A stretch of DNA of 64,000 nucleotides from Fervidobacterium sp. (GTDB taxonomy: Bacteria; Thermotogota; Thermotogae; Thermotogales; Fervidobacteriaceae): assembly GCA_049970055.1 (NCBI GenBank), contig JBMFNR010000001.1, positions 544,001 to 608,000 on the forward strand, read 5' to 3'. Position 1 is the stretch's first letter; every line of letters starts with the position of its first letter. This document shows positions 1-3,000 of the stretch, in pieces. The position numbers are program-made.

Positions 1-3000
1 CAACTCTTTCCTGAGCTTCAAATGTTGAGGCTCCTACATGTGGCGTAGCAACAACGTTAGGAAGCGAGAGGAGCTTTTGTCTTAACTCATCAGTTGGAGG
101 TTCCACTTCGAACACATCCACACCAGCTGCGTAAACTTTACCGCTAACGAGTGCCTCGTATAGAGCTCCTTCGTCAATTATTCCGCCTCTTGCGGCGTTG
201 ATAATAATTACACCATCTTTCATTTTTTCAATTGTTTCCTTGTTGATTAGGTGCTTTGTTTCGGGTGTCAGTGGTACGTGGATAGTTATATAGTCACTTT
301 CCTTGAAAATAGTATTAAGGTCAACAATTTTTACATCTATATCAGTTTCTTTCACAAAAGGATCGTATGCAAGTACTTTCATATCGAAAGCAAGTAATCT
401 TTTTGCTACTTCTCTTCCAATGTTTCCGAAACCAATTATACCTACGGTTCGCTTATAAAGTTCGTGTCCTTCAAGTTCTTTCTTTGTCCATTTACCATTC
501 TTCAAATCGTTTGTGCCTCTGGCGATGTGTCGTGAACAGGCAATCATTAGTCCAATGGTAAGCTCTGCTACTGATATACTATTTGCCCCTGGTGTGTTAA
601 TTACCTTGATACCTTTTGCCTCGGCTGCTTTTACGTCGATGTTGTCAAGACCTGTACCCGCCCGACCTATTATTTTGAGTTTTGTGCCGGCTTCAATAAT
701 ATCTGCGGTTACTTTCGTTGCACTTCTTACGATCAAAATCTCTATTTCAGGCATAATTTTTATAAGTTCGTCTTTCTCAAAGTGTTGAGATGTCAGTTGA
801 ACATTTGGTAGACTTGCAAGCTTTTCCGTTGCCTGTTTATCAAGCGGATCATTTACGTGAATTCTCATATTACTTCACCAGCCCTTTGAAGAGTACTTCT
901 TCGGCTGCTTTAACTCCTTTTCCTATTTCGACTTTGTAGCCCAGCTCGTTGAGTGCAAACTCTAAAGCTGCAATACCAGTGATGATATCGAATGGACTTA
1001 CCCAACCAAGATGTGATATTCTAAATAGCTCATCTTTCATAGGTTCTTGACCAGCTGCAATTGTAACACCGTATTTATCTCTCATGATTTTTGTAATCTT
1101 GCTGGCTGGTATTCCTTCAGGCGAAGTCACCGCTGTGAGTACGTTACCTGGTCTTTCTGAGAAGAATGTAAGGCCAAGAGCTTTAATCGCTGCTCTTGTT
1201 GCTTCTCCAAGCAAGGCGTGTCTTGCCCATACATTCTCAATTCCTTCTTCTTTGAGCATTTTAACTGCCTTGTTCAACATGTAAATAAGGTTAACGGCTG
1301 TTGTCCATGGATTATCTGGAGAACTCTTTTTGTATTTTCTTAAGTCGAAATAGTACCTGCTATTCGTACATTTTTCCACCTTTGCGTAAGCTTTGTCGTT
1401 AATAGCAATGAATGCCAATCCTGGAGGCAACATCCAACCTTTTTGTGCTCCCGAGACTACGACATCGATCCCCCACTCGTCCATCTTTAGAGGCTCAGCA
1501 AGCAATCCACTTACTGCATCGGTTACGAGAATAACATCTGTATCTTTTGTCAATTTGGCTATGTTTTCAAGATCAATAACGGTACCAGTAGATGTTTCGC
1601 TGTATGTTGTGAAAACTACCTTAGCATCCGGATTTTCTTTCATTGCTTTTTCTATCATCTCTGGTGTTACCGCTTTACCCCATGGAAGTTTGATTTCAAT
1701 TGGAACGATGTTGTAAGCCTTTGCTATTTCAACCCATCTCTCACCAAATTTACCAGCATTAACAATAATTGCTTTCTCACCCGGATTGACAAGATTAACC
1801 ATAGCTGTCTCAAGGGCTCCAGTTCCGGAAGCGGTAAGAACGTATACTGGATGTTGTGTTTGAAAGACGTATTTTGTTAGCTCAAGTGTTTCTTCTAATA
1901 TCTTTACGAACTGTGGAGTCCTATGATGGATGGTGTCCTTTGCACCTTCAAGTAGTATCTCTTGCGGTACAGGTGTTGGACCAGGTGCCAATAAAAGGTT
2001 CTTCTTAATCATCTTTCTAACCTCCTTTTGATTAGTAAAATCTTTAGAATTCAATTGATGATACATCACTACAATAAAATCATTAAAACGTGAATGTTGT
2101 CAATCCGACTTAACCGCAAATTTTTCATTTTGTTGTGAAAGTTTACCATTTTTCTTTCTTAAACTGTTTGTTTGGCATGATAGGTGAATAATAAACAAGT
2201 ATTTTAAACTTCATGTCAGTAATTTGTGTAAATATTACATATTGCACAAGATTGCATGCAAATATTTGCAATATATTAACACATAAGTTGTATTATAAAA
2301 CATTTACAAAACATGCATTATACGTAATTTTATTGGCAGTTATAATAGAATGGCATATATTTGCTAAAATACCTGTGGTGAAAAACATTTCTACGAAAGC
2401 TTACACGGGGAGTGATTAAGAATGGATTTGGAAAGCAAGAGTTCGGAAGTTGGCAAGAACCTACGTTCATCACTCATAAGAGAACTTCTCAAGTACGCAT
2501 CTGTACCAGGTTCTATTTCGTTTGGTGGTGGGGTACCAGATCCGGAGACTTTCCCAAGGCATGAACTTGCACAGATAGCAAAAGAAGTTATAGAAAACGA
2601 GTATAAATACACTCTTCAGTACAATACAACAGAGGGCGATGATGAGTTAGCTAAGCAGATGATAAAACTTCTTGAGCGAATATACGGAATTACATGTCTT
2701 GGAAGAGAAAACTTGCTCTTCACCACAGGTTCGCAGCAAGCGCTTGACTTAGTCGCGAGAATATTTTTGGATAAAGAGAGTATCTGCATAGTTGAATTCC
2801 CAGTTTACTTAGGAGCCGCAAGCGCGTTTAGAACTTTTTCACCCAGATTCGAACCGATTCCACTGGAAGACGACGGAATGGATGTCAATGTTCTTGAAAG
2901 AAAACTGAAAGAATTGGATGAAAAAGGTTTAATTAGTAAGGTTAAATTCATTTACACAGTTCCAAACTTCCACAATCCTGCTGGAGTTACTATGAGTTTT

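Follow-up and report, generated by a model that had tools for sequence, protein, structure and literature searches.

The spacing of sigma-54 promoters is treated as fixed, reportedly on the basis of classic deletion work. At glnAp1/glnAp2, NtrC uses one enhancer, lying next to an upstream sigma-70 promoter, to activate a downstream sigma-54 promoter. The GG and GC of the two promoter elements are separated by ten bases (N10) in the clostridial consensus, in those sites of B. thuringiensis (PMC4428206) and Escherichia coli (PMC4591121) that we saw; the consensus printed in PMC4941409 has nine letters between them, the two sites of that paper have ten, and the nine was taken as a misprint. The closest described regulon is that of Bacillus BkdR, where the site P4468 was found to be dependent on BkdR and sigma-54 (PMC4428206). 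Isoleucine and valine act as inducers of the Bacillus system. Some homologues of enhancer-binding proteins (EBPs), namely TyrR, DhaR, HupR, and PhhR, act on sigma-70 promoters (PMC3162934). In the literature searched, which left most subscription papers and RegPrecise aside (the latter may hold the Bacillus BkdR motif), we found nothing on sigma-54 promoters of Thermotogota, on 9-base spacing or on a BkdR motif.

The locus and its proposed regulation

The window investigated is a stretch of 64,000 nucleotides of Fervidobacterium sp., a hot-spring bacterium (C1:544001-608000). Its features are given below by window position.

2-868, reverse strand: phosphoglycerate-dehydrogenase-like gene, divergent, running off the window (TIGR01327, 378 bits, under the cut-off)
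870-2012, reverse strand: class V aminotransferase (serine/aspartate-glyoxylate type, by family matches), divergent; possible second target of the array
2201-2230, reverse strand: TACACA-18-TAAAAT (9/12), a candidate sigma-70 promoter for the divergent genes; the -35 begins 13 bp from the array
2243-2270, no strand: putative enhancer array, two abutting TGCA-N6-TGCA dyads (2243-2256, 2257-2270); unique, conserved with the activator, also found before Bacillus ptb
2333-2361, forward strand: sigma-70-like TTGGCA-17-TATATT (10/12) overlapping the sigma-54 site; chance level, not evident in relatives
2351-2365, forward strand: sigma-54-type promoter of short spacing, TGGCA (2351-2355) and TTGCT (2361-2365); top genome-wide match of two matrices
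2362-2370, forward strand: overlapping sigma-70 extended -10 reading, TG-C-TAAAAT, as rival or dual use; TAnnnT context in relatives
2422-3657, forward strand: class I/II-like PLP aminotransferase of 411 aa, with which the target operon begins (PLP-family matches below named cut-offs)
3659-4744, forward strand: butyrate (branched-chain acid) kinase 1 (TIGR02707, above cut-off)
4719-5618, forward strand: phosphate butyryltransferase-like protein, Ptb (367 bits, under the cut-off of 410; 50% identical to Bacillus Ptb)
5618-6733, forward strand: butyrate kinase 2 (TIGR02707, above cut-off)
6749-7414, forward strand: P-loop protein (no family above cut-off)
7432-7662, forward strand: small protein (76 aa) carrying two CxxCxxC motifs of ferredoxin type, probable oxidoreductase delta subunit (by inspection)
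7676-10028, forward strand: 2-oxoacid:ferredoxin oxidoreductase subunits (7676-8734, VorB-type, above cut-off; 8740-9492; 9489-10028)
10076-10104, forward strand: intrinsic terminator-like hairpin closing the operon (1 found, 0.1 expected)

The survey's finding had placed a sigma-54 promoter before this catabolic operon. The site itself stood, and one of the two matrices that ranked it first was trained without any site of family f1; what had been missed is its spacing, GG (2352-2353) and GC (2363-2364) being 9 bases apart (GG-N9-GC) and not the canonical 10. The TGCA half-sites of the array start at 2243, 2253, 2257, and 2267. The array is the sole match in the window when up to 2 mismatches are allowed (0.01 expected) and the sole 16/16 tandem in the genome (1.87 Mb), where the runners-up are three matches at 13/16, and it lies 81-108 bp upstream of the TGGCA at 2351. 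The uniqueness and the distance of 80-110 bp claimed by the survey were thus both confirmed, and so was its single EBP: one PF00158 match reaches 8e-72 and three others 5e-7 or weaker, in an assembly of 26 contigs from which a second EBP could be missing. Beside the promoter spacing, the survey's reading did not include the miniature sigma-54, the sigma-70-like block of g3/g4 and g5, or the two additional conversions in f7 and f10 that are described below.

This activator (C1:465740-467431, 563 aa) has the order PAS-PAS-AAA-HTH, with two PAS domains and a Fis-type HTH as in BkdR, and its AAA+ domain contains Walker A/B, the arginine finger and the loop GAFTGA. It would switch on the sigma-54 promoter from the upstream site in an ATP-dependent manner. 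The BkdR-like character reported by the survey also held. The best Bacillus match (E 2.5e-167, the next 4e-97) is 49% identical over 562 aa; this is a one-way best match, the reciprocal test being trivial for a genome with one EBP. The gene of the matching protein is located directly upstream of ptb-bcd, and its loop reads GAFSGA, a T-to-S variant named as that of BkdR (PMC3162934). The promoter at this Bacillus locus is the P4468 site of PMC4428206, and it is preceded by the array in cis (14/16, plus a third dyad). Because the best Bacillus match adjoins ptb-bcd with the same array, the link between activator and array goes beyond co-occurrence alone. The two systems share the domain order, a similar HTH, the TGCA dyad array, and a target with ptb and buk for the breakdown of branched-chain amino acids. 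In contrast, the activator here is without the ~130-aa N-terminal part of BkdR and its gene is apart from the target; the operon contains an aminotransferase and a ferredoxin oxidoreductase where Bacillus has bcd and a dehydrogenase complex, and the promoter spacing is N9, not N10.

We propose the following mechanism. The array would be an upstream activating sequence on which two dimers of the BkdR orthologue occupy two TGMA-N6-TKCA dyads. The PAS domains would sense a signal, which judging from the operon is probably either a keto acid or an amino acid of the branched-chain type, upon which the AAA+ ring would contact a miniature sigma-54 about 100 bp downstream and open the aminotransferase-buk-ptb-buk-VOR operon, whose products would convert amino acids to keto acids, acyl-CoA and finally acids, with ATP gain. 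The sigma-54 of this lineage would read GG-N9-GC; this change and the loss of 6-8 residues between the -12 HTH and the -24 RpoN domain map to a single branch of the phylum. We regard this explanation as a whole, comprising the BkdR array, the miniature sigma-54 on an N9 promoter, one operon and a conversion to sigma-70 in Thermosipho, as well supported by the sequences and probably correct. The broader statement is likely, with slightly less assurance: most Thermotogota would use a sigma-54 variant that reads -24/-12 elements one base closer, is missed by standard searches and is maybe orthogonal to E. coli sigma-54; the Fervidobacteriaceae would have reduced it to a sigma of ~290 aa, one activator and one operon; and the BkdR regulon would have left sigma-54 three times, in Thermosipho via a dual-promoter intermediate that is extant in genome G131.

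This operon is probably the whole sigma-54 regulon of the genome, a claim of the survey that survived testing. As additional targets, a perfect N10 site at C1:102035 and a further 15 strict N10 matches were considered and rejected: the first is inside a kinase gene, and all but one of the top 22 N10 matrix matches fall in ORFs.

Probable departure from sigma-54 in Thermosipho and other families

By family or protein search, rpoN was not found in any of the eight Thermosipho genomes (genera g3/g4; 96-99% complete), and in all four whose locus was inspected the neighbouring genes are there with rpoN cleanly gone from between them. The N9 element is likewise absent from 8/8 g3/g4 loci, from 14/14 f3 loci without the activator, and from the f7 and f10 operon loci inspected. 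The reported loss of rpoN and promoter in g3/g4 is therefore borne out. The survey had further claimed that the activator loop is intact with rpoN and decayed without it; this is correct for f1, where it reads G(A/S)FTGA in 16/16 rpoN-bearing genomes, and for g3/g4, where it is altered in 8/8, and incorrect for f10, where it is deleted in 4/4 rpoN-bearing genomes examined. The rpoN counts exclude a few PF04552 matches that are weak and partial (E 1e-4 to 1e-5; families f3 and f10). In G132 (86% complete) rpoN was not found, and the activator and the N9 promoter are present. The loop change of Thermosipho is itself already known: the EBP of Thermosipho africanus is listed as inactivated (DAFMGT) and without sigma-54 in supplement files 1 and 2 of PMC3162934 (2011).

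An altered or deleted loop, with sensor and HTH kept, was found in 8/8 g3/g4 proteins, in the 10 examined from the 18 f7 genomes, and in the 10 examined from the 25 f10 genomes with an orthologue. The change is graded, from a point change in g4 through decay in g3 and f7 to deletion with dead ATPase motifs in f10. Read from these sequences, the conversion of the BkdR regulon recurs in f7 and f10 beside Thermosipho, and the proteins may regulate sigma-70 promoters, of which there are promoter-like matches beside the array. They resemble TyrR, DhaR, HupR, and PhhR in what they have lost and kept, and differ in that a single set of orthologues displays operator, target and the states before and after, with three separate conversions. 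Such a graded series would show how TyrR-like regulators evolve from enhancer-binding proteins.

In g3/g4, the promoter-bearing segment was deleted, as was rpoN, and the regulator kept its PAS, ATPase, and HTH motifs. It most likely acts as a repressor of a sigma-70 promoter, a role for which we consider the chances about even; transcription from this promoter would start some 25 bp upstream of the array. The promoter would have been present already in g5, the sister genus that retains rpoN: a quick tree groups g3/g4 with its member G131 (support 100), and a sigma-70-like promoter block occurs upstream of the array in both. The forward-strand pair scores 8/12 in 7/8 g3/g4 genomes, and a sigma-70-like pair of G131 shares its register at -59 from the array. 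Like glnAp1/glnAp2 with NtrC, G131 appears to have an upstream sigma-70 and a downstream sigma-54 promoter around one enhancer; unlike it, Thermosipho keeps the sigma-70 half only, and its array is downstream of the presumed start, not on the promoter.

Less probably, the divergent aminotransferase/serA-like operon would be the main target of the Thermosipho regulator, which would act on it from a class I position, and the catabolic operon would have become constitutive. In 8/8 g3/g4 loci there is a divergent pair, TTGAAA-17-TACAAT (10/12), whose -35 is 11 bp away from the array, so that the dyads lie near -54 and -68 of this promoter; a similar 10/12 match is found at -12 in 10/14 g1/g2 loci, the candidate at 2201-2230 of the window is in a register close to these better matches, and in f10 good sigma-70 promoters follow the array at a distance of at least 58 bp, which places it as an activator site would be. 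However, G131 has the forward-strand pair and no divergent match, G130 has a forward-strand -10 changed to TATAAT and keeps the reverse-strand one, and the third dyad of g4 and f2 is on the flank facing the catabolic operon.

Nine-base spacing and the miniature sigma-54

The N9 spacing was found at the target operon in 50/50 orthologous loci of five families (f1 15/15, f2 17/17, genus g10 of f3 2/2, f9 13/13, f11 3/3), while N10 occurs in 17/17 loci of four others (f4 1, f5 2, f6 1, f8 13/13). GG and GC stand in the context TGGCA and TTGC, except in f2, where the -12 element is TTGAT in 16/17 loci; PMC4591121 includes an E. coli ChIP site of sigma-54 whose -12 also has GAT. Genome-wide, the matches sum to 227 N9 and 107 N10 in f9 versus 48 N9 and 146 N10 in f8. 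In seven multi-activator genomes whose sigma-54 has a short linker, 40/58 N9 matches were promoter-placed (before genes) compared with 2/28 N10 matches; in the long-linker genome G024 the values were 4/12 for N10 and 0/1 for N9. The regulons seen with N9 spacing in f9 and f10 include genes with pilin-type N-termini and ketoacyl-synthase-like genes (names by inspection).

The rpoN gene of the genome (C2:3675-4559) encodes a miniature sigma-54 of about 285-294 aa (canonical 340-500). The protein matches PF04552 at 88 bits, its -12 HTH and -24 RpoN box align to 5ui5, its predicted fold has a pLDDT of 90.6, and all Foldseek matches at E<0.002 are sigma-54. It thus shares HTH, RpoN box and fold with the proteins of E. 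coli and Aquifex (5UI5), and its promoters share with canonical ones the TGGCA and TTGC elements and an activator about 100 bp upstream; the element spacing differs by the one base. It also differs in having almost no region II and a truncated core-binding domain, with only 5-71 of the 185 positions of PF04963 matched, and it is below the TIGR02395 cut-off. The Pfam model of the activator-interaction domain gave no match at E<=1; the N-terminus forms two helices in the predicted model and can be aligned to region I of f9.

The N9 lineages have 6-8 residues deleted between the -12 and -24 binding domains, and compared with E. coli and Aquifex there are 7-11 fewer residues from HTH to RpoN box. 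This deletion possibly contributes to the N9 spacing, although we put that at somewhat below even. That the shortened linker acts as a molecular ruler and alone sets N9 is less likely still. The HTH-to-RpoN-box distance splits Thermotogota completely, 64-66 in 60 sequences of N9 families and 70-75 in 20 of N10 families, and f4, long at this linker and short at the next loop, has an N10 promoter. On the other hand, the pairing represents one event on the tree without independent repeats, and distances of 63-65 were also found in non-Thermotogota-like proteins among 150 cluster representatives. The ruler was not supported in five Chloroflexota genomes, whose distance is 63: 8/30 sampled N10 matches (of 119) were promoter-placed versus 2/30 sampled N9 matches (of 80), and an N10 site precedes rpoN itself. 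Because N10 persists in Chloroflexota whose linker is just as short, linker length alone is insufficient for the spacing.

We consider it very probable that the N9 site is used by sigma-54. The competing proposal, that it is a sigma-70 extended -10 element (TG-n-TAnnnT), with another role for the upstream TGGCA and the small RpoN as a relic, is improbable. TAnnnT follows in 11/13 f1 and 9/16 f2 loci, n differs between f1 (C) and f2 (A) as a free position may, the TGn element occurs in RpoD promoters of T. maritima (PMC3636130), and the truncated core-binding domain would suit a relic; but the pattern fits 0/12 f9, 0/3 f11 and 4/35 other N9 sites, the element vanishes where rpoN is lost, and the loop is intact in 46/46 activators examined from lineages with the element. 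Moreover, because 7/12 canonical N10 sites of f8 show TAnnnT as well, a TA-rich tail is common to ordinary sigma-54 promoters. Dual sigma-54/sigma-70 use may occur in f1 and f2. The match at 2333-2361 is at chance level, the region having 4 sigma-70-like matches with 3.5 +/- 2.2 expected.

Used by sigma-54, the N9 promoter would represent a lineage-wide shift of one base with unchanged motifs, in which distance-measuring by two DNA-binding domains could be tested directly. It would also explain why regulon searches miss sigma-54 promoters of Thermotogota. Together with its native sigma-54 it is a candidate orthogonal sigma/promoter pair, and the miniature protein would be a natural minimal construct.

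Distribution of the array

The array goes with the activator across the order, as the survey had held. It scores 13-16/16 in 42/42 readable loci with the activator and 8-11/16 in 14/14 f3 loci without it, and 30 shuffles per locus gave maxima of 10-14 (of 16); four loci whose contigs end before the promoter (G118, G100, G089, G013) were left out. The array-to-promoter distance is 101-108 bp in f1 (15 loci, 11 of them at 103 bp), 92-95 in f2 (16 loci), and 100-102 or 111-115 in f9 (12 loci), classes that differ by roughly one helical turn; the promoter-to-ATG distance in f1 ranges from 57 to 114. The steadiness of the former in f1 beside the variation of the latter strengthens the survey's reading.

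It is highly probable that the BkdR orthologue binds the array. That another regulator does so, the loop-decayed proteins drifting as pseudogenes-to-be, is very improbable. In its favour, the activator gene is ~80 kb from the operon, several f7 loci have partial arrays and two g19 loci none by eye (strict tandem pattern in 2/18 f7 genomes). Against it, the Bacillus array is located next to bkdR and before the known BkdR target; five g3/g4 proteins measured share 76-81% identity with G000 in the second PAS domain (79% in G131); all 8 g3/g4 proteins have intact Walker A/B motifs, arginine finger and HTH; and the array is kept in 8/8 g3/g4 and 26/26 f10, with extra f10 copies before a Glu/Leu/Phe/Val dehydrogenase gene and peptide transporters.

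Among further matches, the single one in G142 (an f3 genome without the activator) is inside an ORF. A shift of f10 to TGAA/TTCA half-sites as protein-DNA co-evolution proved weak, single TGAA/TTCA being common in the arrays of f1, f8, and f9. Of the single TGCA dyads, those at C2:51891 and C2:454489 form the stems of hairpins resembling terminators, and that at C4:16924 is found before a gene similar to ornithine carbamoyltransferase, which has a sigma-70-like promoter.

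The operon and its short-spaced promoter

We found that the tandem array reported by the survey was real and unique in this Fervidobacterium genome. In the window sequence TGCA stands at 2243, 2253, 2257 and 2267, giving two abutting TGCA-N6-TGCA dyads. With up to two mismatches allowed, the tandem pattern matched once in the window against 0.01 expected, and across the genome 16/16 was scored only here, the runners-up being three matches at 13/16. The locus contains:

One flank of the array: divergent pair, class V aminotransferase and serA-like gene
2243-2270: array of two dyads
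2351-2365: promoter, GG and GC separated by 9 bases (N9; the canonical 10 is N10)
Other flank: nine-gene run of aminotransferase, buk, ptb, buk, P-loop protein, ferredoxin-like subunit and three 2-oxoacid oxidoreductase subunits
10076: terminator-like hairpin, end of the nine-gene run

Sigma-70-like matches within the window's own intergenic region were at chance level. Outside the window, a single dyad at C4:16924, about 110 bp 5' of an ornithine carbamoyltransferase-like gene and followed downstream by TTGAAA-17-TATATA, is a possible weak second site.

Deletions of one base are reported to kill sigma-54 promoters. We take family f1 to be Fervidobacteriaceae, f3 Thermotogaceae, f9 Kosmotogaceae-like and f10 Petrotogaceae-like. 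The orthologous operon had N9 in all 15 rpoN-bearing loci read in f1 (out of 16 genomes), all 17 read in f2 (out of 18), 2/2 in genus g10 of f3, 13/13 read in f9 (out of 25) and 3/3 in f11. It had N10 in f4 (1), f5 (2), f6 (1 read, out of 2) and f8 (13/13 read, out of 16; one was a GG-N10-GC variant found by eye). In one genome (G048; L193, L320, L321) the N9 promoter was doubled, with two copies 134 bp apart in identical context. In f2 the -24 element was an invariant TGGCACG (L153-L172) and the -12 element was TTGAT in 16/17 loci, the latter probably a second change, specific to this lineage, in how the promoter is read.

The N9 shift reaches beyond this operon. Across seven f9/f10 genomes that have multiple enhancer-binding proteins (EBPs), 40/58 N9 matches were intergenic just before a same-strand gene, versus 2/28 N10 matches; in the f8 genome G024, 0/1 N9 and 4/12 N10 matches were promoter-placed. 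For a ketoacyl-synthase-like gene, named by inspection, the spacing is N9 in three genomes of f10 and N10 in G024. Genome-wide matches summed to 227 N9 and 107 N10 in f9 and to 48 and 146 in f8, and, like all our N9/N10 counts, these are descriptions and not tests because related genomes are not independent. The sums were 10 N9 to 50 N10 in rpoN-less Thermosipho (genera g3/g4) and 73 to 73 in rpoN-less f7; N9 thus has no advantage in the background.

Many f9 N9 promoters preceded genes whose N-termini resemble those of type IV pilins (GF[ST]L[IV]ELL; L293, L298, L307, L313, L315, L344, L345, L351, L354, L356, L361, L365), and a pilus-centred sigma-54 regulon is suggested for that family.

There is precedent for BkdR, for enhancer arrays and for the conversion of EBPs to sigma-70; the new main point would be a short-spaced class of sigma-54 promoters. 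The spacing is 10 bases in the clostridial consensus (PMC6615313), E. coli ChIP sites (PMC4591121) and B. thuringiensis sites (PMC4428206). No mention of Thermotogota sigma-54 promoters or of 9-base spacing was found in the literature searched, subscription papers being mostly outside its scope; 9-base spacing was unmentioned in the accessible portions of PMC7057263, PMC6524683, PMC6755734, PMC11704786, PMC13157175, PMC4941409, PMC6461809 and PMC3636130, the last of which gives T. maritima four sigma factors, none of them RpoN.

Extended -10 elements and sigma-54 linker length

It is possible that the -12 element doubles as an extended -10, with dual use in f1 and f2, where that reading fits 11/13 and 9/16 loci, respectively. 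However, it fits 0/12 sites in f9, 0/3 in f11 and 4/35 other N9 sites, while 7/12 canonical f8 sites also fit, and on these sequences it cannot explain the N9 class.

The single RpoN of this genome is about 285-294 aa long and matches PF04552 and Aquifex chain 5ui5; in its predicted fold (pLDDT 90.6) every structural match at E<0.002 was a sigma-54. Region II is almost absent, and the core-binding domain is cut down to its first part. The HTH-to-RpoN-box distance, the linker between the -12 and -24 binding domains, was 64-66 in 60/80 Thermotogota RpoNs (f1, f2, f3, f9, f10, f11) and 70-75 in 20/80 (f4, f5, f6, f8), 11 of the 80 values being taken from printed tails where the pattern had failed. 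A gap of 6-8 residues directly C-terminal to the conserved FF forms part of this difference. The long forms clustered on a quick tree (support 91), and the linker change was therefore a single event.

The modal distance in 150 cluster representatives was 75, and 63-65 also occurred outside Thermotogota. Distances of 64-65 were seen in other non-Thermotogota-like sigma-54s (P0063, P0074, P0025, P0089, P0113, P0119, P0131, P0141). Five Chloroflexota genomes with a distance of 63 (58 in two rows, a pattern slip) served as an independent-repeat check: 8/30 sampled N10 matches were promoter-placed, versus 2/30 sampled N9. Because these favour N10, a short linker is not sufficient for N9. One Chloroflexota locus (L514, G155) has an N10 site directly before rpoN, and autoregulation of that gene is suggested.

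The BkdR-like activator and the regulon

As the survey had it, there is one clear EBP in the genome (563 aa, PAS-PAS-AAA-HTH, loop GAFTGA). Its best match in a Bacillus genome (E 2.5e-167, next 4e-97; 49% identity across 562 residues) carries GAFSGA as its loop, and its gene directly precedes ptb and bcd. T-to-S is given as the BkdR loop in PMC3162934. The promoter before the Bacillus ptb is the same 17-mer as a site for which PMC4428206 lists dependence on sigma-54 and on BkdR, seen with a lacZ fusion. The same tandem array (14/16) precedes this promoter too, accompanied by a third dyad. By sequence this EBP is orthologous to BkdR, with the array as its likely binding site.

Order-wide, the array scored 13-16/16 in 42/42 readable loci of activator-bearing genomes and 8-11/16 in 14/14 f3 loci without the activator, 6 of which also have the aminotransferase-buk gene order; the proposed tie between activator and array was thus borne out at sequence level (42/42 vs 0/14). 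The activator had orthologues in 129/151 genomes at E<=1e-75, and the relaxed tandem pattern gave exactly one site in 22/24 f1 genomes. From array start to promoter the distance was 103 bp in 11/15 f1 loci (range 101-108). It was 92-95 bp in 16 loci of f2, 79 bp in two of f3-g10 and either 100-102 or 111-115 bp in 12 of f9; from promoter to start codon it was 57 to 114 bp in f1.

The operon had also been proposed as the whole sigma-54 regulon. Two promoter matrices, built on 12 f1 relatives and on 47 f2/f9/f10 sites, both ranked 2349 top in the genome, and none of the other matches above the lowest training score was promoter-placed. In four relatives (G111, G112, G113, G131) the operon site alone was promoter-placed among 20 strict N9 matches. 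A one-operon regulon, in this 26-contig assembly, is therefore kept as our best estimate.

Some other genes were seen along the way. In nearly all of the f1 loci listed (L095-L118) the activator gene has a UPF0047/YjbQ-like gene of 136 aa immediately 5' of it, with which it is probably co-transcribed. Four f1 genomes (G121, G122, G110, G109; L119-L122) carry a second EBP-like AAA protein of about 480 aa with loops GAYTSA, GAYTGA, GAYTDA and GAFTDS and no obvious C-terminal HTH. At C1:451948-462108, outside the window and 3.6 kb from the activator gene, a lysine-fermentation-like run (CoA transferase subunits and aminomutase-like genes, named by inspection) had neither array nor N9 promoter upstream.

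Candidate conversions in Thermosipho, f7 and f10

The reported loss of rpoN with loop decay in Thermosipho held: rpoN was not found in 8/8 genomes searched, and its former neighbours lay 86-101 bp apart in 4/4 looked at, where the rpoN-bearing sister G131 has the gene. The loops read GAFLGA (3), GAFFGA, DAFMGT, GTFIGT and EPFLDK or were deleted, and ESELFG lacked its S; Walker A/B, arginine finger and HTH were intact, and the second PAS domain was 76-81% identical in five proteins measured. These activators were sister to that of G131 (support 100, quick tree; the careful search was unfinished), and therefore the loss is derived.

The array was kept, starting 65-106 bp 5' of the start codon. 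In 8/8 genomes an ungapped block lay 5' of it; relative to the array, its + strand carried TTTACT-17-TACACT at -59 (-10 TATAAT in G130) and its - strand TTGAAA-17-TACAAT at -11. In G131, where rpoN, GAFTGA and the N9 promoter are all retained, TTATCA-17-TACAAT stands at the same -59. We infer a dual-promoter ancestor that would then have lost its sigma-54 half, for which glnAp1/p2 is a parallel. On the + transcript the array would then occupy about +25 to +52, which is a roadblock position; relative to the divergent transcript it would sit near -54/-68. The protein-level part is already in print: the PMC3162934 supplement lists F. nodosum with one sigma-54 and one EBP, and T. africanus as lacking sigma-54 and having its loop, DAFMGT, inactivated.

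Two more conversions are probable in f7 and f10, which with Thermosipho form separate clades on the activator tree. In f7, rpoN was present in 0/18 genomes and the loop altered in 10/10 examined, from GAFAGA to unrecognisable; full or partial arrays preceded sigma-70-like -10 elements in several loci, with none evident in two. In f10, 10/10 activators examined had lost the loop, Walker A, Walker B and arginine finger, four of them in genomes retaining rpoN for other EBPs. The array occurred in 26/26 f10 genomes as TGAA-N6-TTCA twice, with sigma-70-like promoters downstream of it; in genus g44 TTGACT-17-TATAAT follows 58 bp after it. In four f10 genomes an extra copy preceded a Glu/Leu/Phe/Val dehydrogenase, and others stood before an OPT transporter and before an oligopeptide-ABC-like gene; the remaining extra matches fell within ORFs.
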